Origin: Dictyostelium discoideum
Lineage: Eukaryota
Length of the DNA stretch: 64,000 nt
Direction of reading: 5' to 3'
Assembly (NCBI GenBank): GCA_000004695.1
Contig: CM000152.2
Span: forward strand, 448,001 to 512,000
Each line of letters begins with the position of its first letter. Within the stretch, counting starts at the first letter, position 1. Under the pieces are notes generated by a model. That model saw only the letters and a program-made list of their open reading frames with translations. It did not search any database and had not been told where the DNA came from. Below, in pieces: positions 4,973-64,000 of the stretch. The position numbers were made by a program, and so were the translations under genes.

Positions 4973-5173
4973 GGTTGTTGTTGTTGTTGTGGTTGTTGTT
5001 GTTGTTGTGGTTGAGGTTGTTGTTGTGGTTGAGGTTGATGTTGTTGATGTGGTTGTTGTGGTTGATGATGGTGTTGTTGTTGTGGTTGCTGTTGATGTTG
5101 ATGTTGTGGTTGTTGCGGTTGTTGTGGTTGTTGCGGTTGTTGTTGTTGTGGATGATGATGATGATGATGATGA

Positions 5174-5227
<54 letters not shown>

Positions 5228-5813
5228 GGTTGTTGTTGTAGTTGTTGTTGTTGGTGTTGATGTTGTTGTTGTTGTTGATGTAGTTGGTGTTGATGTTGTT
5301 GATGTTGAATTTGGATTTGTTGATGTTGTAGTTGTTGATTTTGTTGTTGTTGTAGTTGTTGGTGATGTTGAAGTTGTAGTTGTTGTTGAATTTGGATTTG
5401 TTGTTGTTGTAATTGTTGTTGGATTTGTTGTTGGATTTGTTGGTTTTGGTGAACAGACATATGTGTGAGATGGTTTTGATGTTGTGGTTGATGTTGTTGT
5501 TGGATTTGAGATGGTGGAAATTGTTGGGAAATTGGTTGGTTGTTACCAACTTGTATAGTTTTTTCATTTTTTATTTGATTATCAAATTTAGTTGGAGATA
5601 ATTGTTGTGGACTTGTGTTGTTGTTATTGCTGTTATGATTGTTTGAAAAATTATTTTGAGATGATAAGGTTAAAACAGATGATTGAGAGGATTGTAATTG
5701 TGGAGGTGAATTTAAATGTTGAGTTGACGATGATAATTGGTTTGGAACATGAGGTTGTGATGAACTTAATTCATTATTATTATTTATATTATTATTACCT
5801 ATTATTGTTATTA

Positions 5814-5891
<78 letters not shown>

Positions 5892-5931
5892 CCATTTGTT
5901 TGGCCATTATTATTACTATTATTATTATTAC

Positions 5932-5962
<31 letters not shown>

Positions 5963-6339
5963 GTTGTTGTTATTGTTATTGCTATTATTATTATTATTGT
6001 TATTATTATTACTACCATTTATTCTATTATTATTATTATTGTGTAATGGTGGTTGCTGGATTTGTAATTGCTGAATATTATTCATAAATGATATCATTTG
6101 TTGGTTATTATTATTATTATTTAAAGATGAAGAGGATGATGAAGAAGATGATGAAGAGGATGGTGGTTGTGGTAATGGTACTTGGTTGTTGTTACTATTT
6201 ACAAAGATTGGGTCGTTTAGTTTATTTGTTTTATTATTGTTGTTCCAAATTGGTTCTTCCTTTTTATTCGATAAAGATAATAGTGATCCGATGTGAATAG
6301 AACCATTTGAATAATTATTATTATTATTTGAGTTGGAAC

Positions 6340-6394
<55 letters not shown>

Positions 6395-6535
6395 GTTGTT
6401 GTTGTTGTTGTTACTACCGCTATTATTATGATTAAAATCACTTGGTGTAGTTGATTTCGGATTTGCTAATGATAGCAATGAATATAAATCTTCGTGGTCG
6501 GGAACTGAATGAAATGATTTTAATGATTCATTCAT
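4551..6535 (-). CDS. Exon 1 of a large poly-N/poly-Q protein gene (whole gene 708..6535). Coding frame changes inside an (AAT)n tract near 5798-5830.
   Basis: ORF 5795..6535 (MNESLKSF..., poly-N/S) and ORF 4546..6018 (poly-Q, ...ICCKCNNKQNVG) overlap in different frames. Only the poly-N frame is plausible upstream of ~5830, because the other frame gives poly-I. The donor GGTTAGT at ~4550 coincides with the ORF stop. Upstream of 6535 is homopolymer intergenic DNA. Confidence 0.45.
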
Positions 6536-6542
6536 TTTGCTT

Positions 6543-6573
<31 letters not shown>

Positions 6574-6812
6574 TTTTATTTTATTTTTAAAATAATAATA
6601 GAATTAATACTTATTAAGAATTATATTTATTTTTATTATTAAAATTTTATTTTTACTATTTTGGAATTTTGGGGGTTTGATTGGAATATTTTATTTTTTT
6701 TTTTTTTTTTTTTAAAAAAAAATATTTAAGTGTATATTTAAATATATACAGGTGAATTTAGATTAACTACAAAAAGTTTAATTATTTATTTTATTATTAT
6801 TATTATTATTTT

Positions 6813-6846
<34 letters not shown>

Positions 6847-7139
6847 CTTTCTTTTGTTTAACTTTTTGAAGAGAAATAGATTATAAAAATAAAAATGGGT
6901 GGATTAATTAATTAGAATTTGGCAATATTTTTATTTCTCTTTTTTTATTTTATTTTTTTTTTAAACAATAGATCATAATTTTATTTTTATTATTTTTTTT
7001 TTTATTTTTTTTTTTTTTTTTTTTTAAAAATAAAAATAATCACACCTATAAAAAAAAGAGGATAAAGGAAAAAAATAAAAAATAAAATAAGATAATATAA
7101 ACAAAAAACAAAAAACAATTCCAATTTCCAAAAAATTTT

Positions 7140-7176
<37 letters not shown>

Positions 7177-8367
7177 AAAGGATTTAAAATAACAATAAAA
7201 ATAAAAATATATATATTTGTATAAATGGGTGTGTGTTTAATTTAACAAAAAATACAATTAAAAAATTAAATAAATAAAATAAAATTAAAAAAAAAAGAGA
7301 AAAAAAAAAAGAGAGAAAAAAAAAAAAAAAAATTAAAATTATAATTTATTGGTAGTTAAAAATAGCAACAAGAATATATATATATATTATATTTGTTGTT
7401 GGATGGTTAAATAATATTAAAAAAAAAAAAAAAAAAAATTGTAGTAATAATAATATTATTATTATTATTTTTATTATTATTTTTATTATTATTTTTATTA
7501 TTATTCCTTTGATGTGATGATATAAAATAATTAATATAAAAAGGAATTTATTTGGGGTTTTATTGGAGTTTGAGTGTATGTGCAGTAAGTAACACACAAT
7601 TTTTTTATCTTATCTATACACCACATTTAAAACCACTTTTATTGTGTTTTTTTTTTTTTTTTATTTTTTTTTTTTTATTTTTTTTTTTTTGTTGTTGTTG
7701 TTATTGTTATTGTTGTTTGAATTAATTGTATTATTATTTTTTTAATGATGGTGAGTTTATCAACATCAAACTTGATCTTTTAAAAAAACAATAAATAAAT
7801 AAATAAATAAATAAAAAAAAAAATGGAAAAAAAAAAAAAAAAAATAAAATAAATATTTATTTAATGATAGTAATAATAATTATTCGTAACCATCAAAGAT
7901 AAAACAACTTAAATGATAGAGAGAACTGGGTTAAGGTGAGTGGGTGAGTGTTTGAGAGTGTGTGAGTGTTTTTTTTTTTTTATTTTTTTTTTATTTTTTT
8001 TTTTTTTCTTTATTTGTGTGTTTTTATTTCTTTAAATATAACATTTTAATTTTATTTGTGCACACACACATTCATTAAGTATCAATTGTGAAGTTTAAAT
8101 GGAAATGTGGGGTGAGTTTGAAATGGGTGAGTGGGTTAGTGTGTGAGAGAGAGCGTGTTTAATATAGATATATGTTTGTGAGAGAGGAAAAAAACGAGAT
8201 TATGAGCGAGAATACTGTTTGTTTTAGATAATAGGGTTCCCTTGAAGTGGGGTTTATGAGTGTGAAAAGTGAGTTTGAGTGTGGAATGTGTGTGTGTGTG
8301 TGGTAATTTTATATATATTATGTACAAATATTTAATTTAAAATTATATGTATTATTTGTGAGGGGTG

Positions 8368-8406
<39 letters not shown>

Positions 8407-8892
8407 AAAGCAAAACAAAAATAAAGTTAAATATATACAAAATTCATTCAAATAATTGAAAACGCTGGATTCAAAAATCATCTGATGGGGTCTCTTTTTT
8501 TTTTAAAAAAAAAAAAAAAAAAAAAAAGATAAACATAATTTAATATGACAAATTTGGTGATAACTACCAATTAAAGAAAAATGACCCAAAAGATATTCTA
8601 ATAAACAAAAAAAAAAATTATAAATTTATATAAAAAAAAAAATAACTGTTAAATATGATAATTTTTGGAATGCATATTGTAAAAAATAACTTTTATAAAA
8701 AAAAAAAAAATGGAAATAGTTGGAAAATAACCATTTTAGTTTTGATGAAAAAAAATAAAATAAAATAAAATAAAATAAAATAAAATAAAAACATTGAATT
8801 TTTTTAAAAAATGATATACTATAAATAAAATTTATCTTAAAATAGTTAAATAGATAAATGATACCAAAATTATTACAAAAATCAATGATATT

Positions 8893-8930
<38 letters not shown>

Positions 8931-9630
8931 ATATAAAATATTATTTTTTTTACAAATAAAATAATGATAAAAGAAATAAAATAATTATTATTTTTAACAT
9001 TAAAAATTATTGTTGTCTATTATTATTATTATTTTTTTTTTATTATTATTGGTTTTATTATTATTATTATTGTTTTCATTATTATTCCTTTTTTTTTTTT
9101 TTTAATTGATTGGGAAAAGATTTAATACTTACTTATATGGGATATTGTTTTTTTTTTTTTTTTTTTTAAAATTATAAAAATAATTACTTTTAACCAGGAA
9201 TGAAATAAACAATTTTGTAAATTTTAAATTAGTAATTATGTTTGTTGTTGTTTAATTTAAACAAAAAAAAATCAAAGGATAATAATAATTAAATTAATAA
9301 TTATTTTTTTTTTTTTTTTTTATTTGTTAGAAAAAAAAAAAAATATATAATGAAAAAATATATTTATAATGTTTATAACTATTTTGTTGTTGTTTTTGTT
9401 TGATGTTGATAAAAATTTTAAAAATATAAATAATATTTATTTTCTTTATTTAAAAAAAAAAAAAAAAGATTAAAAAAAAAAAAAAAAAAAAAAAAAGTAT
9501 ATAATTATATTGTTGTTGTTATTGTTTTTTTTTAAAAATTTTTTTTGTTTTTTCCTAATGGAGTGATCTGTAGTATATACTACCAGTATCAAAAAAAATA
9601 ATGAGCAATCAGAATTTCAAGAAGCTAAAC

Positions 9631-9683
<53 letters not shown>

Positions 9684-9802
9684 AATTAAAATAATTAAAA
9701 TTATTATAAAATTATTAAAAAAATAAATAATAATAATAATAATAAATAAAAGAAAAAAATAAATTAAAGTGTACAATATACAATTTGTGGCAAAAATATT
9801 TG

Positions 9803-9838
<36 letters not shown>

Positions 9839-10703
9839 AAACATACACCCCAAACACCACCTATTTCTATGTATTTATCCATTTTTATTTATTTCACTCT
9901 AACCCAAAATTTTGTATTGCATTTGATAAATAAATAAATTGTTTTTAATATTAAAGATTTATCATTTTTTTATATTAATTTCGATGATGTGTATATATGT
10001 GTGTGTATGTGAGTGAGTGTGTGTATATTTTTTTAAAATATGTATTTTGGAGTTAATGTACTTCATTTGTGTGTTGGTAGTACTATATATATATAGGAAA
10101 AAAATTAAAAAATTAAAAAATTAAAAAAAAAAAAAAGCGTGTGTGAGCTGATAATATTATTGTTATGAACACTATTTTAGTAGTTTTTAAAAAACGATAT
10201 GTTAATTTTTTACTATTGTTGGTGAACATAAAATAATAATAAAAAAAAAAAAACTATAAATATCATTAAATTAATTATTAATATTATTATTTTTTAAATA
10301 CATTATTTTTTTATTATTATTTTTTTTTTTATAATATCAAACGGATATGATTTATGTGGTAAAATTATGTGTTTGAGTGTGGTATCATCAATTATTGGAA
10401 GAAGAGTTTCATTCAAAAAAAAAAAAAAAAAAAAAAAACAAGAAAACCAACAATAACGAAAAATATTATCTATTATGGAAAAATTAAAATAAACTAATAC
10501 TATAATTTCTAATTTCACATTGAACATTACCTTATATATATATATATGTGTGTTGAATTTTTGGTGTTATGGTAATAATCGTGGTTATTTATATTTATAT
10601 AAACATATATGTCGATTAATAATTTTATTTATTTATTTTTTAATTTCTTTTTTTTTATTTTTTTTTTTTTTTTTAATTTATCATATCTTAATTTACCAAT
10701 GGG

Positions 10704-10765
<62 letters not shown>

Positions 10766-10848
10766 TAAACTTTTATAAAAAAATTAAAAATGTGTAAACC
10801 ACACATTCTATTGCCCAGTTGGTATGTGTGTGTGTGTGTGACACATAT

Positions 10849-10911
<63 letters not shown>

Positions 10912-11552
10912 AAATTGGAACAATAGTGTGTTTACTCTATCGATCAGTAAACCGAATTATAACTATAAAATTTCATTTATTTTAATTAAAATTCCATATT
11001 AAATTTATTTTTTACTCTCTCCATTATTACCTTTACACATTTCTTTTCCATGCCATTTATATTACACTTCACAATTTATTGTCATTATCATCAGATTAAA
11101 TTTACATTTTGAAACGATTTTGATCAATCACATATTTGTGTTTTTATCGTGAAAAAAAAAAAAAAAAATAAAAAAATAAAAAAAAAAAAAAAAAGAAAGA
11201 TTTTGAAACCCACAAAACATTGATTCGAAAATACCTAAATTAAATTTTATTTTTTTTTTATTATTTTTTTTTTTTTATTTTTTTTTTATTTTTTTTTCTA
11301 AACACTGACAATAAGACCTTCAAAAGAAGTGATTAAATAAAAAAAATAATTATTTGAATAAAAAATAAAAAAAAAAAAGAAAAAAAAAAATTTTAAAAAT
11401 AATTGCCAAAGTTTTATTTGAAAAAAAAATTAATCAAAAAAAAAATAAAAAAAATAAAAAAAATAAAAAAAATTTTTTTAAAAAAAAAAATAAAAAAAAA
11501 TAAAAAAAAAAAAATAAATAAAACACCAAACACAATAAACAATAAACAGCAC

Positions 11553-51807: not shown

Positions 51808-53412
51808 TTATTTATTTTTATTATATAATTTTGGAATTATTGATTTTCTTTTTAATAGTATAATAAATAAAGAAATTATAAAAACTAAAACAGATATATT
51901 TGTTAATGTATAAAAAGCAGACATTGCTGAAGTAATTGGATATTCTTTATCAACTTGATTATTGACTGAATTTGTAAATTTTGTAAAATCCTCTTCTTTT
52001 TGATTTGGATTAATTTCATTTTGTATTGAATTACGATGATTATGATTTTCAATTAATTGATTTATTGATTTTTGATAAAATATTTTTTTTTCAATATATA
52101 TATATCCCTTATTATTCATTAACTTTACAAATGTGTATTCTAGTGTTTCATTATGAATTGGACCAATATAACATGTTAATTCATCAAATAAAATTTTATT
52201 ACTATTATCATTATTATTATCATTATTATTATTTTTATTATTATTATTGTTATTATTATTATTTATTATACCTATGGTATCGTATGATACCTTTTTAAAA
52301 TTAATAATTGATGATGAACATTGTTCATCACCAATTAAAACTATTATATCTAAATTAAAATGTAAACCATAAATTGTAATTACTCCACCATCTCTTGATA
52401 AACCTTTAATTGATTTTATATCTGGTAATTGGTATGAAAATTGTAATTTATTTTCAACAGAATTTATTAATATATTATTTAAATATACTTTTACTGGAAT
52501 TAATTTTCCATCATGTACACCATCTGGTAATGTTGCTTCAATTAAATTTGAATTTAAAATTCTTACATTTGAACAATACTTTTCACCAACTTGTACTGAA
52601 AAATTACCTTTTAAATTGTTACCATTAATTATCAACTTTCCATTCTTTATTAATAATGATGATAATTCTTTATTTAAACTTAATATTTCAATATTATTAT
52701 TGTTATTATTATTATTAATATTAATTAATTTATCATTTTGTTTTTTATTATTATTATTATTATTATTTAAAATTAAATTAATTGGTAATGATTTATTATA
52801 ATTCCAATTAATTACTAAATATAATTGAGTATTGGTTAATAAATTTATTGTTGATTTTGGTATTTTAAAATTAATTTCATTTTCGTTTATTAAAGTATTA
52901 GAATTTAATATTAAAATTTCATCAGTATTATTCCCAGTCCATAATATGAAATTTGTATCGAAATTTAAATAATACCCATTTAATTTTAAAATACCATCAT
53001 TTGTTAAAATTAAATTTGATATTATTGGATATGGATGAACTGATTCAATTAATATAATACCACATTTACTACTACTACCTTGATTATTGATTTGATTTGT
53101 TACTAAACATGCGTCAATTGAATGTGCATTTAATTGATTTTTATATTTACTTGATTCAAAAGTACATTCTCTATAGATATCATTCACTATTTTACAATCA
53201 AAACCAATTGTTATTGTTGGTTTTGAAAATTCAATATCACTATAAAGTGTCCAATTACTATAATAAGCATTATTTATATCTGTTTTTATTTTAATATATT
53301 CTTTATTAATTTGAAATTCTTTTATTATAGGTATATAATCAATTAATTCACATTTTATAATATTAATAAATATAAATATTAAAAAAATTATAAAATATTT
53401 TAAATTATTCAT
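51808..53412 (-). CDS. Secreted/type-I membrane protein with IPT/TIG-like repeats (Tgr-like).
   Basis: 534-aa ORF with signal peptide MNNLKYFIIFLIFIFINIIKC. IPT-type motifs are GKLIINGNNLKGNFSVQVGEKYCSNVRIL and DGGVITIYGLHFNLDIIVLIGDEQCSS. C-terminal TM is ISVLVFIISLFIILL followed by KRK. Confidence 0.5.
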   Translation of the reverse strand: MNNLKYFIIFLIFIFINIIKCELIDYIPIIKEFQINKEYIKIKTDINNAYYSNWTLYSDIEFSKPTITIGFDCKIVNDIYRECTFESSKYKNQLNAHSIDACLVTNQINNQGSSSKCGIILIESVHPYPIISNLILTNDGILKLNGYYLNFDTNFILWTGNNTDEILILNSNTLINENEINFKIPKSTINLLTNTQLYLVINWNYNKSLPINLILNNNNNNNKKQNDKLININNNNNNNNIEILSLNKELSSLLIKNGKLIINGNNLKGNFSVQVGEKYCSNVRILNSNLIEATLPDGVHDGKLIPVKVYLNNILINSVENKLQFSYQLPDIKSIKGLSRDGGVITIYGLHFNLDIIVLIGDEQCSSSIINFKKVSYDTIGIINNNNNNNNNKNNNNDNNNDNSNKILFDELTCYIGPIHNETLEYTFVKLMNNKGYIYIEKKIFYQKSINQLIENHNHRNSIQNEINPNQKEEDFTKFTNSVNNQVDKEYPITSAMSAFYTLTNISVLVFIISLFIILLKRKSIIPKLYNKNK

Positions 53413-53436
53413 TTATTTATTTTTTATTATTTATTT

Positions 53437-53476
<40 letters not shown>

Positions 53477-53480
53477 AAAG

Positions 53481-53517
<37 letters not shown>

Positions 53518-53816
53518 ACTAAAAAAAAAAAAAAATATTGTTTTCAATTTAATTAAAGATAAAAAAAAAAAAAAAAAAAAAATATTCTACTAAAAAAAAA
53601 AAAAAAAATAAAAATAAATATATGTATATATATATATACTCACACAATTGTGTGTGTGTGTGTATGTGTGATTTGTTTCTTTTTTTGGGTTTTTAAATCT
53701 TTTTTTTTTTTTTTTGTAATTTCAAAAAAATATTTTTTTTTTTTTTTTTTTTTTTTATTTTTTTTTAAACAGTTTTAATGCATGATTAAATATTTTTTTT
53801 ATTTTTTTTTTTATTT

Positions 53817-54425
53817 TTAAATTTTTATAAATTTATTAAATAATTTAATTATTTTGTTTTTTTGATTTAAATTTCTTAAAACTTTTTTATATTCTTTACA
53901 ATTTTTAATTATTTGTTTTTCTTTATTTTCAATTGTTTCAATTAATAAATGAAAAATTGAACAAACTGATGATAAATTTTTAGAAGATGTAATTATTGTT
54001 GGTGCATCAAATACTTTTGATAATTCCAAAACTTCATTTTTTGAAATTTGATTTTTCAAATCAGATTTATTTGCAACCAATATTATTGGTGGCATAATAT
54101 TACTTGATTTAAAATTTGATTTTATTAAATCTTTATAAACTTGAATTTTGTCTATTGATTCTCTATCATTTAAAGAATAAACAATTATAAAACATTGTAC
54201 ATTTGAAATCGTATCTGGTACCAAACAATTATATTCCTCTTGACCAGCTGTATCGTTACAACAAATTGTATATAATTTATTTTTGTATGAATATAATTTA
54301 TTACATTTATTTTCTATTGTCGGTATATATGAATCTTCAAAATATGAATTCATAAACATATTAATTATTGATGATTTTCCAGTTTTTGCTGCTCCCAAAA
54401 TTCCACAATTTATAATTTTTCTCAT
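53817..54425 (-). CDS. Divergent Ras-superfamily small GTPase (CAAX-less), paralog of the gene at 43519..44327.
   Basis: 202-aa ORF with G1 GAAKTGKSS, switch I YIPTIEN, G3 DTAGQEEY and G4 ANKSD. Confidence 0.6.
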   Translation of the reverse strand: MRKIINCGILGAAKTGKSSIINMFMNSYFEDSYIPTIENKCNKLYSYKNKLYTICCNDTAGQEEYNCLVPDTISNVQCFIIVYSLNDRESIDKIQVYKDLIKSNFKSSNIMPPIILVANKSDLKNQISKNEVLELSKVFDAPTIITSSKNLSSVCSIFHLLIETIENKEKQIIKNCKEYKKVLRNLNQKNKIIKLFNKFIKI

Positions 54426-54972
54426 TTTTTTTTTTTTTTTATTTTTATTTTTATATTTTTTTTTTTATTATTTTTTATTGGAAATTCCCCAAATTCAAAG
54501 ATTTAAAAATTTTTGAGTTTATTATTTATTTATAAATATTTTTATTTTTTATAATTTTTATTTTTTTTGTATTTTAATAGTTTTTTTAAAATTTTGTTTT
54601 ATTTTTGTGGAAAATAAATAAATAAATAAATAAATAAATGAATAAATAATAAAAAAATAAAATAAAAATGGAAATAAAAAAAAAAAAAAAAAAATATCTT
54701 TAAATTGTTATATGTATTATACAATATATCAAAACTGAAAATGATGATCAAACAAAAACAGTTTATTTTTGTTGTTACCGTCGTTGTTGGTAAAATATCT
54801 ATTTTTGATACTAATACAAAATCATATCACAAAACACACCATATTAAAATACTAACACACACAAACACATACACATTTTATTTTTTTTTTAAATACAACA
54901 AAAACAATTCATATTATTATTATTTTAAATTTAGGTTTAAAAATAACATTAATGAATACAAAATATTTGCCA

Positions 54973-55011
<39 letters not shown>

Positions 55012-56082
55012 TTTAACCACTTTTGGTGTTTTGTTTTTTGTTGCACACAATAATTTTGTAATACAAATTTGTACTTTTTTGGAAAATTTAGTGGTGAATT
55101 TTATTTTTTTTTATATATAAAAAAATTATTTCAATTATTTGAAATAAATAATAATAATAGAACCTCATATAAGAATATTATATAAATAAAAAAAATGTAT
55201 GAAATATAAATAGAAATTATATATATATTTTTTTTTTAATTTTTTCAAATTTTTAAAGTTAAAAATACAAAATACCAAATAAATTTTTCATACCTTTAAT
55301 TATTATTATTATTATTATTATTTTAATTTTATACTATTATTTTTATATTGTTATTGTTATTATTTTTATTTTTTTCTTTATTAGTATTATTATTATTATT
55401 ATTATTATTTTAATTTTTTTCTTTTTTTATTTTTTTTTTTATTTTTTTTTTATTATGATTTTACTTTTGATAAAAACTTAATATAATTTCTTATTATTTT
55501 AATTACTAATATACCTAATTTATTAATAAATTTTTTAATTTTATTTTATTTAATTTTTATTTATTTTTCATTTTCTTAATAAAATTTTATATCTTGATTA
55601 AATTTCTTTTTTTTATTTTTTTTTTTATTTTTTTAACGATAAAAATAATTTTCAATATTTTTTTATTCCCTAAAGTTATTTTTAGTGCTATGTGGTGATA
55701 ATTTCATTATATCCAATTTTATTTTTCTTAAATTTTAAAAAAAAAAAAATAAAAAATAAAAAGAGATATATAAAAAAAGGATTCGTTGTATTATTATTAA
55801 TTACAATTTTATTATCGAATAACAATATTATAACATCATTTTAAATACTTTTTTATATTATTTCATAGACCCCCCCATACAATAATCTATTTTTAAAAAA
55901 CAATTAATATTAATATAATCACGCTATTTTCTAAACACACAATAAACACACCCAAGCACCCACCATTTTTTTTTTATTTTTTAATTTTATTTTTATTTTT
56001 ATTTTTATTTTTTTTTTTTTTTCCAATATTTGATACAGACAAAATGTATATTCATCTAAAAAAAATTTTTTTTTTTTTGTTT

Positions 56083-56119
<37 letters not shown>

Positions 56120-56186
56120 TATTTTTAATTTAATATATTTCAATTACAAAAAAGAACACACACATTCACACAATAAAGAATCAAAT

Positions 56187-56217
<31 letters not shown>

Positions 56218-56441
56218 CAATTTGATAATAATAAAAATTAAAAATATATATTTTATATCTTTTTGTAATTAATAATTATCTATAGTCGAAAAAAAAAATA
56301 AAAAATAAAAAATAAAAATAAAAAAAATTAAAACAAAAAACAAAAAAAAAACAAAAAAACAAATAATAGTAATAATAATAATAATTAAATAATAAATAAA
56401 AAGATCAATTTTTTTTTTTTGAAAATAAAAAAAAAAAAAAA

Positions 56442-56775
56442 ATGGAAAATTTAAATACAACAAGTACGGCAGCATTAACTGGTATGACAAAACAAGAGAA
56501 TGATGCATCATATGCAGTTCTATTGATTGCAGATTTTACATCAATAATTGGTTGTACATTAGTTTTATTAGGTTTTTGGAGATTAAAATTACTTCGTAAT
56601 CATATTACAAAAATAATTACCTTTTTTTGTTCAACATCATTAGCCAAAGATTTAATATCAACAATTTTAACATTGATTGAAAAGAAACAATCAAATGGGT
56701 CATTCCAATGTTACCTTTACGCAACTGTTATCACTTATGGTTCATTGGCATGTTGGCTTTGGACATTATGTTTAT
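56442..56775 (+). CDS. cAR family GPCR, downstream copy, exon 1.
   Basis: [44 protein letters not shown]...[30 protein letters not shown] donor at 56776 (phase 1). Confidence 0.8.
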
Positions 56776-56843
56776 GTAAGTATTTGTTATAGAAATAAAA
56801 ATAATAAAAATAATAAAATAATTTTAAAAATTATGTTTAGAAA

Positions 56844-56881
<38 letters not shown>

Positions 56882-56940
56882 AATTTAATTTTTATTATTA
56901 TTTAATATTAATATTATTATTATTTCTATTACTTTTACAG

Positions 56941-57795
56941 CATTTAGTATTTATAATTTAATTGTAAAGAGAGAACCAGAGCCAGAGAAATTTGAAAAAT
57001 ATTATCATGTTTTTTGTTGGGTTGTACCATTTATAATGTCAGTGATAATGTTGTCAAAGGGTGTTATAGAGGTGACGGGTAATTGGTGTTGGATTGGTAA
57101 CACTTATGTTGGGTATAGATTTGGCTTGTTTTACGGACCATTTCTTGCAATTTGGTTCCTTGCTGCCGTGTTGGTTGGTTTGACTTCGAGGTATACCTAT
57201 AAGGTGATTAGAAGTAGTGTTAGTGATAATAAGGATAGACATATGACCTACCAATTCAAGTTAATCAATTATATAATTGTTTTCCTTTTATGTTGGGTGT
57301 TTGCTGTTATTAATCGTATTGTCAATGGCTTGAATATGTTTCCAGCTTGGGTTAGTATTCTTCACACCTATCTAAGTGTATCGCATGGTTTCTATGCTTC
57401 GGTGACTTTTATCTATAATAATCCATTGATGTGGAGATATTTAGCATCAATAATTTTAATTCCATTCACAAAGTTTGGTTATTTTGTTGAAACTCAACAA
57501 AGATTAGAAAAAAATAAAAATAATAATAATCATTCACCAGTTGGGTTATCAAATAATGCTCAAAATAATAATCATCATCATAATCATAATAATAATCACA
57601 ATAATAATCATAATAATCATAATAACAATAATAATAACAATAATAGTGATTTCGTTAATAATGACTCAAGTAATTATTATACTGCTTCAATGATTGAATC
57701 ATTCTCTGTTCAAAATGAAAATTCAAAATCTATAAATGGTGCTGATAATTTTAAACAAAATGGTGCAAGTCAACAAGATGATAAAGATTCTCCAA

Positions 57796-57878
<83 letters not shown>

Positions 57879-58079
57879 TATAATAATAAAGATATTGAAC
57901 CAATTGACAATTGTAATACTAATTCCATACCAATGGATAATATTGCCACTAGAATTGAAATACCTCCACAACATCCAACATTAACTCCTCAACAATCATT
58001 ACAAGAAATTAATTTAAATGATGACGACAACAAAATTAATACTCACCAAAGTAACAAAAAAAAAGATTCAAATGTTTAA
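56941..58079 (+). CDS. cAR family GPCR, downstream copy, exon 2 (TM4-7 plus N/H-rich tail).
   Basis: Acceptor TTTTACAG at 56939-56940. In frame with ORF 57036..58079. The core is ~85% identical to the upstream copy, and the C-tails diverge. Confidence 0.8.
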
Positions 58080-58381
58080 AAAAAAAAAAAAAATCCAAGA
58101 GTTTGAAAAAAAAAAAAAAAAAAAAGATCCAAGTGTTTAAAAAAAAAAAATAAATAAAAAAAATAAAAAAAATAAAAATAAATTATTTATGTACTTCGAA
58201 TAATATGTATTCTCAAAAAACTTATTTTGATTTTAAAGAACAACGTGAAGAGGATGAAATTTTAAATAAAATAGATTTTGACCAAGAAACAAAATCGGCA
58301 AGGAAATTTTGATTTTCATTAGCCAGCTTGGCCCGATAGTAATTTAAAAATATCAAGCCAAAAAAAATTTGATTTTCATCA

Positions 58382-58464
58382 GCCGGCTTTGGCGCAATGG
58401 TAGCGCGATTGACTGTAGTAATATTAGTGATCAATCGGTTGCTAGTTCGAATCTGGCAAGCCGG
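58382..58464 (+). tRNA. tRNA-Tyr(GUA): tRNA-Tyr (anticodon GUA) with an 11-nt intron (58418..58428).
   Basis: Hand-folded cloverleaf: acceptor CCGGCTT/AAGCCGG, D-stem GCGC/GCGC with loop AATGGTA, anticodon stem ATTGA/TCAAT, loop CT-GTA-G then an intron after position 37, T-stem GCTAG/CTGGC with loop TTCGAAT, discriminator A, followed by TTTT. Confidence 0.85.
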
Positions 58465-58485
58465 ACTTTTCGTAAAAAAAATTAA

Positions 58486-58502
58486 AGTCGAGGGTTCGAT
58501 TC
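58486..58502 (+). promoter_or_regulatory. Putative external B box (GTCGAGGGTTCGATTCT) downstream of the tRNA gene.
   Basis: B-box-like GGTTCGA.TC about 25 nt after the tRNA terminator. This is known for Dictyostelium tRNA genes. Confidence 0.45.
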
Positions 58503-58509
58503 TTTAAAT

Positions 58510-60715
58510 ATCCAATTTGATTCTATCTCTCATGATAGTATTAAAAGAACATAAATTCATATTGGTATACCAATTAAATTAATAAATTTAATCCACAAGC
58601 TATTATCTGACTCACAAGCAAAAATTTCAATTAATGGTAAAACGACCAGAAAATTCGATATTAAAAGAGGTGTAAAACAAGGCGACCCAATCTCGGCCAC
58701 TTTATTTGTAATTGTAATTGAAATATTAGCAAGAACAATAAATGCAGACAATTCAATAATTGGATTACCAATTTCACCCAATCCACAAATTAAAATCAAA
58801 TTTACCCAATTTGCAGACGACTCTACAACATACAACATCAACTACGAACAACAACAACAATCAATCAAACATTTCCATAATTTCTGCGCTTCAACATCAT
58901 CATCATTAAATTTTGACAAAAGTGCAATAATAGAAATCAACCCCCACAAAATCACTGATAAACACATAATAAACAACATTCCACAATCAAAAAGAATACC
59001 AATTACCAAAAAAGATCAATCAGAAAGAGTTCTTGGCTATTTCTTTAATCATAATGGTTTACATAGGAAATTACCAGAAACAATGAAAACACTGATCAAA
59101 TCATTAGTACTATGGAAAACTAGTGGCACAACATTAAAAACAAAAACAACCATCATAAACACCTACTCACTATCACCAATAACATATTTATCATACCTTG
59201 AAGAATTTACAAAAGATGAAGAAATTCAAATTAATAAATTAATCTCATGGTTTATGAATTCTCCCGCAAATTCTGAATCACCAACTCTCAATACCAATTC
59301 CATTGAAAACAACACATCAACCATCCATTCACGTGCAAAAATACCTTTGATGTGTTATGATAGATCATTAAAACCATTAAAAGAAGGTGGTTGGGGTATG
59401 TGGAATATACAATTACGACAAGTTGCTCAAAAGATTTGGATATACAACAGATTTTTACAAATGCATAAATCTGCAAACAATTCAATATACATGATAAGTT
59501 GGATGGATCAAATCATCAACAAATCAATCTCTTCTCCATACCTTATAAAAATCAAAAAAGAATGGGAAAACTATGCAACTCAAATTGGACATCTAAAAGA
59601 TAAAGTTCAAACCCTACAACCAATATTAACAAAAAACCAAACCTCTCAAACATTAAACACAAATAATATTTCACTACCACCAACACTCAAAGAAATCTAC
59701 TCGAAAATACTCAACAATCACCAATGCAAATCAAAAGACTATATTGACAAGAAATATTCAGATCTACTTCTTAATTCGCACCAACAATCAATACAACTAT
59801 TATGGAAATACACTTACGACCAACTTTTTGTCAAAATTCAAAAATTAAAAGATCCAAAAGGCCGTGATACAATGCAAAGATTCCATGCTAGATTTCTTCC
59901 AATTAATCATCTACACAACAAAGTTTGCCCCATTTGCAACAATGAAATGAATAATGATCCCTATGGTCATTTGTTTTTCAATTGTCAACACACAATCAAC
60001 TTCATAAACCACGAAAAATTAAAATATTTTATATATAAAAATTGCAATGGAAACAAAAACTGGTCACTAACAAAAAACCAAACAACAAAATTATACACAC
60101 TCATTTATAAACCACAAACAAACAACAAAGCATTTAAACCAGATCCAACTATCAATATAAATTTTCATTTTGCAGAAAACGCACAATATAAAAAATACAG
60201 GTTCAACTGGAATTATATAAACACAAATCTTGATCTAGTCAGAACACATGCATATTGGAACATAATCTCATTAGTTATTCACCAAATATGGATATGGTTA
60301 TGCAAATCATTATTTGACATCAATATAACTCAATCAATTGACAATTGGAACAACCAAATAAACAACACAACACTAGATTATGATATATTAAAATCAAAAT
60401 GGCACAAGCTAATAAGATTGGAATATTCAAGAACATTATCAAACTTTAACCAATACTCAATTAAAAACAACCTCACAAAAACTCAAAAAGAAACCCAATG
60501 GTCCGAAACCATCAAAAAATTTAAAAAAGAATGGAGCATAAACACAAATGAACCAATTCCAACAATTACACCACCAATTAATTATTAATTGCCTAATCTA
60601 AAATAACATACCATTTTAAATTCACAAAAACTAAAAAACCTAAAATAAATAAATAAAAATAACATACTAATTGTATACTACAATAGTTTATTTATATCAA
60701 AAAAAAAAAAAAAAT
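58510..60715 (+). mobile_element. 5'-truncated tRNA-gene-targeted non-LTR retrotransposon (TRE3-like) with an oligo-A tail.
   Basis: It begins ~50 bp downstream of tRNA-Tyr and encodes the RT C-terminal half plus a CCHC knuckle. The A16 tract at ~60699-60714 ends it. The island is GC-richer than its surroundings. Confidence 0.65.
58555..60588 (+). CDS. Partial ORF2 of the retrotransposon (reverse transcriptase motifs from RGVKQGDPISATLF and FADDS onward, then a Cys/His knuckle CPICNNE...HLFFNCQH).
   Basis: Open frame from the stop at 58552-58554 through ORF 59083..60588. There is no N-terminal RT or endonuclease portion, so it is 5' truncated. Confidence 0.65.
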   Translation: MHIGIPIKLINLIHKLLSDSQAKISINGKTTRKFDIKRGVKQGDPISATLFVIVIEILARTINADNSIIGLPISPNPQIKIKFTQFADDSTTYNINYEQQQQSIKHFHNFCASTSSSLNFDKSAIIEINPHKITDKHIINNIPQSKRIPITKKDQSERVLGYFFNHNGLHRKLPETMKTLIKSLVLWKTSGTTLKTKTTIINTYSLSPITYLSYLEEFTKDEEIQINKLISWFMNSPANSESPTLNTNSIENNTSTIHSRAKIPLMCYDRSLKPLKEGGWGMWNIQLRQVAQKIWIYNRFLQMHKSANNSIYMISWMDQIINKSISSPYLIKIKKEWENYATQIGHLKDKVQTLQPILTKNQTSQTLNTNNISLPPTLKEIYSKILNNHQCKSKDYIDKKYSDLLLNSHQQSIQLLWKYTYDQLFVKIQKLKDPKGRDTMQRFHARFLPINHLHNKVCPICNNEMNNDPYGHLFFNCQHTINFINHEKLKYFIYKNCNGNKNWSLTKNQTTKLYTLIYKPQTNNKAFKPDPTININFHFAENAQYKKYRFNWNYINTNLDLVRTHAYWNIISLVIHQIWIWLCKSLFDINITQSIDNWNNQINNTTLDYDILKSKWHKLIRLEYSRTLSNFNQYSIKNNLTKTQKETQWSETIKKFKKEWSINTNEPIPTITPPINY

Positions 60716-60744
60716 ACCCAATTCCGAGAACATCTAATTCCATC

Positions 60745-60955
60745 GTCTATTAATAAAACTATTAATTATTGCTAACTTCCTTTACTGGATAAAGGTGTTT
60801 AATTAAAATTTCTAAAAAAATCATCCAAAATCAATATCAATCATTTTTGTCAATCCAAATATATCCAAATATAAGAAGTTCCTGAAACAATTAATAATTG
60901 TTTTTTTCCTTTAATGGATAAACACTGGTTAATCAACTAATCTAAAAAAATTAAA
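60745..60955 (+). repeat. Two diverged ~70-bp direct repeats just 3' of the retroelement poly-A.
   Basis: ctattaattattgctaacttcctttactggataaaggtgtttaattaaaatttctaaaaaaat vs caattaataattgtttttttcctttaatggataaacactggttaatcaactaatctaaaaaaatt. Confidence 0.4.
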
Positions 60956-61754
60956 TATATTCAAAAAACAATGGATACATTAATTTTTTTATTTTTTTAT
61001 TTTATATAATTTTGTGTATTTTTGGGTGCTCTATATTTATATATTAAATTCTTGTAAAATAAATTAATTTGTTAAAAAAAAAAATAAAATAAAAATAAAA
61101 AAAAAAAAATTAAAATATTTTTATTAACAATTCCCCAAACCAAAAAAAAAAAAAAAAAAAAAAAATTTCATCAATAAAAGAAGACTTTGAACCATTAAAA
61201 AATAATAAATATCATAAAATTTTAATTTTTTTATTTTAATATGATAAAAGATTTTAACGAATCAAACATAAGAAATATAAGATCGTCAGGCATTAGCACC
61301 AAAAAGTTAGAAGACTTTTTTTCGTAAGAAGGAATATAAATAAAAAAATAAAAAAAAAATAAGAAAAAAAAGTTCAAAACAATTTTATATTTACCAATTA
61401 TTATTATTTTAAAAAAAAAAATAAAAAAAAAAATAAATAATATTAAAAAGTATTAACCAATATCCAAATAAAAATGAAATAAAAGATTTTGCAAATTACT
61501 ACCAATGTGATGAAACCAAAATAAAAAATTGGTTCAAAGGAAAGAGAGACCGTTTAAAAAAAAAGTCATCAAATAATGAAAAGAGTGGAAATAAGTTTTA
61601 TTTTAAATGATTAATTAAAATATATGTATATATAAAAATAAAATAAAAAATAAAAAAAAATAAAAAAAAAGCTTTTAAAAACATTTTATATAATATTAAG
61701 TCTATAGAAAGTGAGTAAATATACAAAAGTTTTAATTATTTTATTTAATTATTT

Positions 61755-61788
<34 letters not shown>

Positions 61789-61793
<5 letters not shown>

Positions 61794-62269
61794 CTTTTTT
61801 ATCATCGTCATCATTATTATTATTATTATCAATTAAAGTTGGTTGCTCGAGTACAGCCAAAGAATATTTTGAATGTTGATGACTTGGATATTTGATGATA
61901 TGACAAGTTGTTGGATCAAATGATCTAATCTCCATGATAGTTGAGAGGAGTACAGGATCAACAGGATTTAATAGATTTTGAATATTTTGAGCAATCTCTG
62001 AGAAATCCACAGCATCTAAATTTGGATTTCTAAAAATTGATTGTGAGGTATTATTTGGTTTAAAAGAGTAACAAAGAAAAGATATCATCAATATGAATAT
62101 TGGTTCTGATAAAGTGAATGCCAACCAATATAAAGACCATACCATCACAATTCTTAAACTATTTACAAATAAAATCGCACCTAAATATAAAACTACTGAA
62201 GTTCTTAAATTTGTAAAAACTCTTTTCTTTTCTGATAAATTATTTACTTGTTCTAAATTATTAATATAC
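61789..62269 (-). CDS. LUSTR/GPR107-like 7TM protein, exon 3 (TM5-TM7 plus an acidic tail).
   Basis: Acceptor TATATAG at 62271-62270. The phase-2 junction (AG+G=Arg) is in frame with ORF 61789..62148. Confidence 0.45.
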
Positions 62270-62358
62270 CTATATACATATATTTTAAAATAAAATTTTT
62301 ATTTGTTAAAAATTATAATAATTATAATTATAATTATAATTATAATAATAAAACTTAC

Positions 62359-62740
62359 CTTGATAAAATTGAATGAGAATAAAGAATTCTTAAATTCTTT
62401 GTAATATTTGTAAATATTTTTGGCATCATAAAAAAGTAAAGAATCATTAAACTAAGGAAATAATAAATATCATTATAGAACCTAAAAAATAATAAAACAC
62501 CACAAAGGAAGAATCCTACCACAAAAATTGCCTTTAATTCTGATCTTGATAAAGTTTGTCTTGTTACTCTTAATCCCCTTGATAATATAAATAAAGTAAG
62601 GAAAAATGCTGTTTCTGAAAAGGAATAAAATATATTTTGAATATACCATAATGCCATACTATAAGTACCAAGATTATTTGCATCTGTCCAAAACGAATAT
62701 TGAACGATAATTAATATTAATTTTAAAACTAATACAATAT
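62359..62740 (-). CDS. LUSTR/GPR107-like 7TM protein, exon 2 (TM2-TM4).
   Basis: Acceptor AAAATAG at 62742-62741. The phase-1 junction is in frame with ORF 62355..62657. The GGTAAGT donor coincides with the ORF stop. Confidence 0.45.
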
Positions 62741-62824
62741 CTATTTTTTTAAAAATAAAATTTTTATGTTAGAATAAAATTATAAATTTATTATTATTAA
62801 TAATATTATTTTTATAATACATAC

Positions 62825-63275
62825 ATAAAACAATATGTAAAATATTTAAAGAACTTTTATGACAATACCAAAATATTGTAACAGTAAAAAATAAACAACA
62901 AAATATTATCATAATATAACGATAGAGTAGAGGTAATTGAAGGTAACCTTTCTCCAATTGACCATTTCTATTTGTTAGGGTGAATGACATATCAATGGAA
63001 GCAGTTCTAGTATCTGTACATTTTAAAATGATAACTCTATACATATCGGAATCTGGTATATCAAATGTACCTTTAAAACCTTGATATAATGGAATATTAT
63101 TTATTGGACAATTTGATAAAGTTGCTGTACCATCGCATAATTTAGTTTCAATTGTATTGGTTGGTGTTGAACCAATTACTGATTGATAATCTCTATCTTG
63201 ACATATCCATAGTGTAATATTATTAATTGGTATTATTACACCACCTGTACTACCTGTATAAACTGGTGAAGTATT

Positions 63276-63306
<31 letters not shown>

Positions 63307-63581
63307 TTATTATTATTACCGCCCATTGTAGTAGTAGTATTATATAAAACAATTGTACCATCCAATTGAAGCTTCTTTATATTTATATCTGCAAATCCAT
63401 TACTATCATATCCATATTGTTCAACCATATAATAATTACCACTAAATGAAAACTCTCTATCATATATCATACAATTCCCTTTATCTAAAAATAATAACAA
63501 TATTATTGTTGTTATCAATATTATAAATTTTATACTATTACTACAAATTCTACTATTACTACAAATGTTTATTCTATTCAT
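62825..63581 (-). CDS. LUSTR/GPR107-like 7TM protein, exon 1 (signal peptide, lumenal domain, TM1).
   Basis: ORF 62769..63581 frame truncated at the GTATGT donor at 62824-62819. Confidence 0.45.
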
Positions 63582-64000
63582 TTTCTATTATTTATTGTTT
63601 TATTTATTTTCTTATTTATTTATCAGTTTGTTTTTTATTTCTATTTATTTGTATGTGTTTGGTGTATGTCTATTTATCTATTTGATATTCTATTTATTTG
63701 TTTATTTGTCTATTTATCTATTTGATGTTCTATTTATTTGTTTATTTGTTTATCTATTTTAAATTGCTAAAAAAAAAAACTATTGTTTTTTTTTTTATTT
63801 TTTTATTTTATTTATAAATCTATGGAGAGAAAAAAAAAAAAAAAAATTTTTATAGTATTTGTATTTTATTTCGAAAATTATTTAAAATCATGATCTTTTT
63901 ATTTTATATTTATTTATTTGTTGTTATTTTAAATTATCTTTTATAAACAATAATTATACATTAATTAAAAAAAAAATAAAAAATGAAGAAAAAAAATAAA

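Follow-up and report, generated by a model that had tools for sequence, protein, structure and literature searches.

TRE3 elements of Dictyostelium discoideum integrate 40-150 base pairs (bp) downstream of transfer RNA (tRNA) genes and can use either an internal or an external B box (PMC5911963), and 66% of D. discoideum tRNA genes have an external B box ~41 bp downstream (PMC3159450). TRE5 elements, in contrast, are inserted ~50 bp upstream and run opposite to the tRNA gene (PMC5911963). In this study, a window of 64,000 nucleotides (nt) of D. discoideum DNA (chromosome 3; assembly GCA_000004695.1, contig CM000152.2, positions 448,001 to 512,000 of the forward strand) was analyzed; all positions below are counted within this window, and the features are collected in Table 1. 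We are highly confident that the region around position 58,400 consists of an intron-containing tRNA-Tyr gene, an external B box and a truncated TRE3-B retrotransposon. This tRNA-Tyr/TRE3-B arrangement is a known and ordinary pattern of D. discoideum, already present in the reference annotation, and a 38-nt relic upstream of the tRNA gene is slightly unusual. The locus is a textbook case of tRNA-gene-targeted retrotransposition in a compact genome, with little meaning beyond quality control.

The family of the element was assigned through its open reading frame (ORF), which showed 96% identity over 237 amino acids to DDB_G0291686. This protein belongs to the 90% cluster of the local gene model DDB_G0278633 and carries the dictyBase product name "TRE3-B ORF2" (PMC12405889, Table 2). 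Because of this match, the TRE3-like element proposed in the original prediction, an earlier reading of the window made from its letters alone, could be specified as TRE3-B. The ORF was also 97% identical to GenBank AAC27746, described as "similar to HC domain of Tdd-3 and DRE". A protein search with the element ORF returned 28 relatives, nearly all of them from D. discoideum. One family member, P0008, contained PF03372 (APE) together with PF00078, which places the relatives among the APE-type retrotransposons without long terminal repeats (non-LTR), and not among the LTR or DIRS elements that the original prediction had named as the competing match. Other families found downstream of tRNA genes shared 41-50% identity with the window ORF, including P0018, which sits downstream of a tRNA gene in locus L007. 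The P0011 family, with 79 cluster members and 41% protein identity to the window ORF, is probably TRE3-A.

Compared with the described TRE3-B elements, the window copy is alike in its 96-98% protein and nucleotide identity among copies, in its reverse transcriptase (RT) and C-terminal zinc domain, in its poly(A) end, and in its place 49 bp behind a tRNA gene, with which it shares its orientation. It is unlike them in being 5'-truncated, with an in-frame stop at 58552 and without ORF1, APE and the N-terminal part of RT; the missing ORF1 is a property of the truncated copy and no ground for excluding it from TRE3-B. The abundant subfamily TRE3-A (formerly Tdd-3) shares the ORF2 domain order and the integration side, but it has 41% protein identity and the 3' ends differ (...CCAATATT(A)n versus ...TTTATATC(A)n). 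TRE5-A (formerly DRE) is likewise an APE-type non-LTR element of the same superfamily with RNA polymerase III (Pol III) genes as landmarks, whereas the window element lies downstream in the same orientation, and the TRE5-like P0021 (L008), which is upstream of its tRNA gene and oppositely oriented, showed 29% identity to the window ORF. Skipper-2 (DGLT-P) also integrates downstream of tRNA genes in dictyostelids, but it is an LTR/Ty3-gypsy element with integrase and chromodomain, whereas the window element has poly(A), no LTRs and APE-type relatives. The hallmarks of LTR elements (Skipper, DGLT-A) and of DIRS, namely LTRs or inverted terminal repeats, integrase or tyrosine recombinase, and RNase H, are not those of the window element.

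The position of the insertion was then compared with the published TRE3 range. The tRNA gene ends at 58465 and the element starts at 58515, both on the + strand, and the gap of 49 bp falls inside 40-150 bp, in agreement with the distance of ~50 bp and the position-specific integration suggested earlier. A target-site duplication (TSD), which the original prediction had proposed looking for, was found at the two ends of the element (AAATATCCAATT and AAATACCCAATT, 11 of 12 positions matching), and a pair this good was equalled by 0.9% of random anchored pairs. In three more TRE3-B copies (L003-L005), the first aligned base was 71-73 bp behind tRNA-Gln, tRNA-Thr and tRNA-Lys genes, again in the same orientation. 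Altogether, at four of the five TRE3-B insertion sites examined, the element followed a tRNA gene of equal orientation at a distance of 49-73 bp. TSDs were also detected at other TRE3-B copies, with 10-11 bp in L001 (TCATCATTTC) and at least 6 bp in L003. An empty orthologous site was sought via the flanking genes, and the sole other copy of the locus that was obtained (L009) bears the identical insertion. The search with the downstream neighbour gave one match, P0075, at 67% identity, whose contig (L002) stops before the tRNA side, and no match was returned when P0005 and two ORFs of the window (51808-53412, 59083-60588) were looked up as exact sequences.

Three points weigh against this reading of a targeted TRE3-B insertion. 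The TRE3-B label is second-hand, being a dictyBase product name quoted in a paper, and it was reached through a protein comparison; a look through the literature for TRE subfamily sequences or gene identifiers yielded that label in PMC12405889 and nothing else. The TSD has one mismatch and was read from the occupied site only. Moreover, the full-length TRE3-B in L001 has no tRNA gene in its 19-kb locus, so targeting is not absolute. This last copy, which lies in a polyketide-synthase gene, would also suit the idea that the window element came to stand beside the tRNA gene accidentally, or that it is of a different class (TRE5, DIRS, or LTR elements such as Skipper-2 and DGLT-A), as would the fact that Skipper-2 likewise lands downstream of tRNA genes. 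We give this idea practically no credence, since the element lacks LTRs and has a poly(A) end and a TSD, its relatives combine APE with RT, its ORF matches a protein with the label TRE3-B ORF2 at 96% identity, TRE5 sits upstream in the opposite orientation, and four of five examined sites show the same spacing and orientation. Published tallies also contradict the notion that TRE3-B is no nearer to tRNA genes than random positions.

Several observations were made at the other TRE3-B copies. In L001 (4975-11460; GCA_054883475.1, CM142511.1), TRE3-B abuts a ketoacyl-synthase (polyketide-synthase) gene, the copies of its TSD (TCATCATTTC) are perfect, and a degenerate B-box-like sequence, GAGATCGATTC, is located ~62 bp upstream of the insertion point. 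This insertion may be off-target, or it may have been targeted by a lone B box. A ~1.13-kb extra segment of L001 (7200-8330) encodes a Q/N-rich stretch, which forms the N-terminus of gene model P0001. In L005 (2327-12165), a single tRNA-Lys gene is followed by two TRE3-B copies in tandem, and parts of the target (TTTTAGTATTACCAAAA) recur between the two copies, an arrangement that matches the "TRE-TRE tandems" described before (PMC5391098).

The anatomy of the window copy was examined against the longer copies. Positions 58515-60714 showed 98% nucleotide identity to L001 9258-11443 and correspond to the last 2.2 kb of the longer copies. The L001 copy (5055-11443) has ORF1-like sequence (detected by tblastn of P0033) and APE-containing sequence upstream, and ~1.13 kb of it is absent from the copies in L003-L005, which gives a canonical length of ~5.27 kb; the window copy is thus the 3'-terminal 42% of the element. 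Translation of 58501-60600 yielded a single frame, open from 58555 to the stop at 60586-60588, in which Pfam detected RVT_1 and weak zinc-finger matches only. By its 5' truncation the window copy has lost ORF1, the endonuclease (APE) and the N-terminal half of RT; it also has an extra stop codon and is therefore dead. The repeat search of the window found no long terminal direct repeats at the element. In a second assembly, GCA_054883475.1 (CM142509.1), 58000-61000 was 100% identical and window positions 52164-64000 were 99.5% identical, so the arrangement is not an artefact of the assembly of one genome project.

All parts of the element listed in the original prediction were present within a few bases of where it had placed them, including the RT motifs RGVKQGDPISATLF and FADDS, which are accompanied by the RVT_1 match. 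Two details had to be corrected. The A16 end was right, whereas the span had been drawn to 60960 and the element stops at 60714. A zinc motif is present as announced, but it is not a gag-type CX2CX4HX4C knuckle; it is the CX2CX10HX4C motif of the ORF2 C terminus. A start of homology at 58500 (TTCTTTAAA) in place of 58515 was also considered and rejected, since there would then be no upstream TSD, and the paralogous flank speaks for 58503-58514 being native. The 9-nt identity at TTCTTTAAA is probably a junction microhomology.

The most likely history of the insertion can be proposed from this anatomy. The tRNA gene with its TFIIIC site would have served as the landing mark for TRE3-B, and integration would have proceeded by target-primed reverse transcription. 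A nick in the bottom strand may have fallen at TTT/AAA, 40 bp beyond the end of the tRNA, where the poly(A) tail would have been primed; the TSD indeed starts with AAA and is preceded by TTT, which could represent the primer site expected for this mechanism. Reverse transcription may then have halted, or the cDNA may have been joined, within the RT-coding region, probably aided by annealing of the target end TTCTTTAAATATCCAATT with the near-identical element sequence TTCTTTAAAGCATT. At the truncation point, the target TTCTTTAAA-TATCCA-ATT resembles the element TTCTTTAAA-GC-ATT, and this microhomology may have fixed the 5' junction. The outcome would be a TSD of 10-12 bp, and the site before insertion would have read ...CTTTAAATAYCCAATTCCGAG...

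Between the tRNA gene and the element lies the external B box. With the consensus and frequency taken from PMC3159450, GTCGAGGGTTCGATTC was the sole match in 64 kb to the consensus GTCNNNNGTTCRANYC, with no match in 100 shuffles and 0 expected, and the simpler pattern GGTTCGANTC also found its only exact match of the window in this box, so that the ex-B-box-like element noticed originally is now placed at 58487-58502. Comparable boxes were found behind the paralogous tRNA-Tyr gene (L004) and behind the tRNA-Thr and tRNA-Gln genes in L003/L004. As in other D. discoideum external B boxes, the consensus GTCnnnnGTTCRAnYC is matched perfectly and the box lies 3' of the terminator; it differs in being nearer to the gene, with the core 29 bp after the tRNA end versus the ~41 bp reported. 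GTCGAGGGTTCGATTC is a putative TFIIIC site, for which the literature suggests a role in guiding TRE3 (PMC3159450, PMC5911963).

The tRNA gene itself was called by the Infernal tRNA model (Rfam RF00005) with 57.8 bits (E 3e-11, gathering threshold 29) on the + strand, with the whole model spanned. In this alignment the anticodon loop had 14 nt versus 3 in the model, which makes 11 extra nt. Folding by hand gave an acceptor stem CCGGCTT/AAGCCGG, a D arm GCGC-AATGGTA-GCGC, an anticodon stem ATTGA/TCAAT with the loop CT-GTA-G followed by TAATATTAGTG and A, a variable region CGGTT, a T arm GCTAG-TTCGAAT-CTGGC and the discriminator A. After excision of 58419-58429, the remaining 72 nt were called tRNA-Tyr(gta) by ARAGORN, with the loop CUGUAGA and the anticodon GUA. 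The tRNA-Tyr(GUA) with an 11-nt intron after position 37 that had been folded in the original prediction was therein recovered, and the gene call that it had asked for was obtained here with the Infernal model. In L004 (5734-5816), a paralogous tRNA-Tyr(GUA) gene agrees with the window gene in every exon position but carries another sequence (TATTGAAAGTG) as its 11-nt insert, as would be expected of an intron.

What speaks against a tRNA-Tyr gene is the behaviour of ARAGORN on unspliced DNA, where it called Thr(tgt) by default and, with -i, Asn(gtt) with an intron at 34/35. Taken at face value, these calls would make the gene a tRNA-Asn(GUU) with an 11-nt 34/35 intron (AGTAATATTAG), or a tRNA-Thr(UGU) with an oversized anticodon loop. 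Introns of eukaryotic nuclear tRNAs sit between positions 37 and 38, and therefore both calls are tool artefacts. Introns are characteristic of nuclear tRNA-Tyr genes, and the eukaryotic tRNA-Tyr acceptor signature is C1-G72 plus A73, both of which are present in the sequence of 58383-58465. The canonical intron position and this signature together lead to the Tyr reading; the cut at 37/38 also restores a loop that ARAGORN itself reads as Tyr, and the Thr call requires a non-standard loop. A tRNA other than tRNA-Tyr is accordingly very improbable. The case is a caution for automated annotation of Dictyostelium tRNAs, as the ARAGORN default mis-assigns this intron-containing tRNA-Tyr gene (58383-58466).

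At the L004 paralog, the 5' flank TTTCATCAG and an external B box (GGGTCGATTC) are conserved, and no retroelement is present behind the gene. A metagenome scan with the 5' exon of tRNA-Tyr gave no match. An Rfam match to MicC on the minus strand reached 25.9 bits versus a gathering threshold of 90 and was dismissed as chance.

Upstream of the tRNA gene, the front end of the gene is repeated. Aligning 58304-58341 with 58364-58402 gave 32 matches in 38 positions, with 5 mismatches and one 1-nt gap, and the local score was 37-41 versus 14-15 +/- 2-2.5 for shuffles. None of 2000 shuffles scored as high, and neither did any of 499 other window chunks. The imitation of the 5' flank, acceptor and D-arm that had been reported at 58306-58340 is thus real and slightly longer. 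Its A box is damaged (ATAG for ATGG) and no B box follows at the normal distance, so the repeat should be silent. In the 28 nt after it, CAAGCC and A8TT are collinear with the 3' acceptor strand of the tRNA and the A run of its 3' flank (score 22, p ~0.03), and AAATT both precedes the repeat and closes the A run of the 3' flank.

These features are most simply explained as the remnant of a head-to-tail duplicate of a ~116-bp tRNA unit, a reading to which we give about an even chance. A unit of this size would have been duplicated in tandem between the two AAATT microhomologies, and the upstream copy would then have lost its middle by an internal deletion and decayed; the collinear CAAGCC and A8TT of the spacer fit such an internally deleted tRNA copy. 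The earlier wording, a partial duplication or a decayed second tRNA copy, still covers the best reading, with CAAGCC...A8TT tilting it toward the decayed copy. Two observations tell against it: the collinear match on which the tandem copy rests is weak, and the paralogous tRNA-Tyr locus (L004) has no upstream relic (score 20 versus a null of 17 +/- 2.5). By the same score, an ancient tandem tRNA-Tyr pair shared with the L004 locus was rejected.

The absence of a relic at the paralog, together with the restriction of the clear repeat to 38 nt and the 12 nt ATTTAAAAATAT that have no counterpart in the tRNA, would equally suit a short duplication that arose, together with filler DNA, in a single event of break repair or replication slippage, so that a complete second tRNA never existed. 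We regard this as possible but doubtful, because it is opposed by the collinear match to the tRNA 3' end and flank and by the AAATT microhomologies that bound the putative 116-bp unit. Alternatively, the repeat could be a 38-bp TSD of a tiny, extremely 5'-truncated retrotransposition, with the spacer ATTTAAAAATATCAAGCC and A run derived from the 3' end and poly(A) tail of an RNA on which a TRE reverse transcriptase had acted. Both repeat copies do start with AAA, as for a primer site of target-primed reverse transcription, and the terminal A run of the spacer directly abuts the second copy. Such a micro-insertion, including this origin of the spacer, nevertheless appears quite unlikely: 38 bp greatly exceeds the 10-12 bp of the TRE3-B TSDs (window, L001, L003), no Dictyostelium element is known to insert within a tRNA gene, and the collinearity of CAAGCC...A8TT with the tRNA 3' end is left unexplained. 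The spacer also had no match in the TRE3-B and TRE3-A-like 3' ends examined or in nine loci, and was accordingly rejected as the 3' end of a TRE element. The broader proposal that the upstream repeat is either a micro-insertion with a 38-bp TSD or a snapshot of the birth and decay of Dictyostelium tRNA gene pairs through microhomology-mediated tandem duplication of ~116 bp is, in our judgement, unlikely. The upstream relic and the L001 copy of TRE3-B without a nearby tRNA gene are minor curiosities.

Table 1 Features of the tRNA-Tyr/TRE3-B locus, with positions in the 64,000-nt window.
Feature	Position	Strand	Description
Upstream repeat (pseudo-duplicate)	58304-58341	+	repeats tRNA nt 1-20 (acceptor 5' strand, D-arm) and the 19 nt of 5' flank before them
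22-nt spacer ATTTAAAAATATCAAGCCAAAA	58342-58363	+	between the two copies; A8TT run at 58360-58369
5' flank of the intact gene	58364-58382	+	TTTCATCAG at 58374-58382 kept at the paralogous tRNA-Tyr locus
tRNA-Tyr(GUA) gene	58383-58465	+	exon 1 58383-58418, intron 58419-58429, exon 2 58430-58465
A box TGGCGCAATGG	58390-58400	+	internal, tRNA-Tyr
Anticodon GTA	58415-58417	+	in exon 1 of tRNA-Tyr
Intron TAATATTAGTG	58419-58429	+	11 nt, after canonical position 37
Internal B box AGTTCGAATC	58444-58453	+	tRNA-Tyr
TTTT run	58467-58470	+	presumed Pol III terminator, from sequence
External B box GTCGAGGGTTCGATTC	58487-58502	+	begins 22 nt past the tRNA end; core GTTCGATTC 29 nt past it
TSD, left copy AAATATCCAATT	58506-58517	+	its final ATT is shared with the element as microhomology
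5'-truncated TRE3-B non-LTR retrotransposon	58515-60714	+	3'-terminal 2.2 kb of the ~5.27-kb element, including A16
In-frame TAA	58552-58554	+	TTT at the same site in intact copies
ORF2 remnant	58555-60588	+	677 codons and stop (60586-60588)
RVT_1	58570-58959	+	Pfam, E 2.6e-11; profile positions 97-194 of 205, C-terminal part of RT
RT motif RGVKQGDPISATLF	from 58666	+	ORF2 translation
RT motif FADDS	58810-58824	+	ORF2 translation
CX2CX10HX4C domain CPICNNEMNNDPYGHLFFNC	59926-59985	+	C-terminal in ORF2
A16 poly(A)	60699-60714	+	end of the element
TSD, right copy AAATACCCAATT	60712-60723	+	its initial AAA is continuous with the poly(A) tail

The public gene models of the locus were also inspected. 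The AX4 gene model DDB_G0278633 (P0005) was 100% identical over the covered part, and its first residues, MYSQKTYFDFKEQ, are encoded at 58207, so that the locus of this model lies in the window. Both this model and ACTFIT_009977 (58207-60588) join the small ORF at 58207, "spliced" over the tRNA-Tyr gene, to the dead TRE3-B ORF. The two models are annotation artefacts. Recognizing them as such, together with the mis-call by the ARAGORN default, is the practical value of the locus.

As for the neighbouring genes, the cAMP-receptor-like seven-transmembrane (7TM) ORF upstream of the tRNA gene (57036-57545) had no relative in a database of 5.8 billion proteins, and the membrane-protein exon downstream (62829-63581) had the single match at 67% identity mentioned above. 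The two genes are either absent from this collection or annotated as pseudogenes. Three tandem copies with a 27/34-nt period were observed at 58051-58152, each consisting of GAT(T/C)CAA(A/G)NGTTT(A/G)A followed by an A run, and the upstream 7TM-like ORF (57036-58079) has its final codons and its stop in the first copy. In the flank downstream of the element, a 38-nt direct repeat with 82% identity is found at 60756-60793 and 60885-60922, 129 bp apart.

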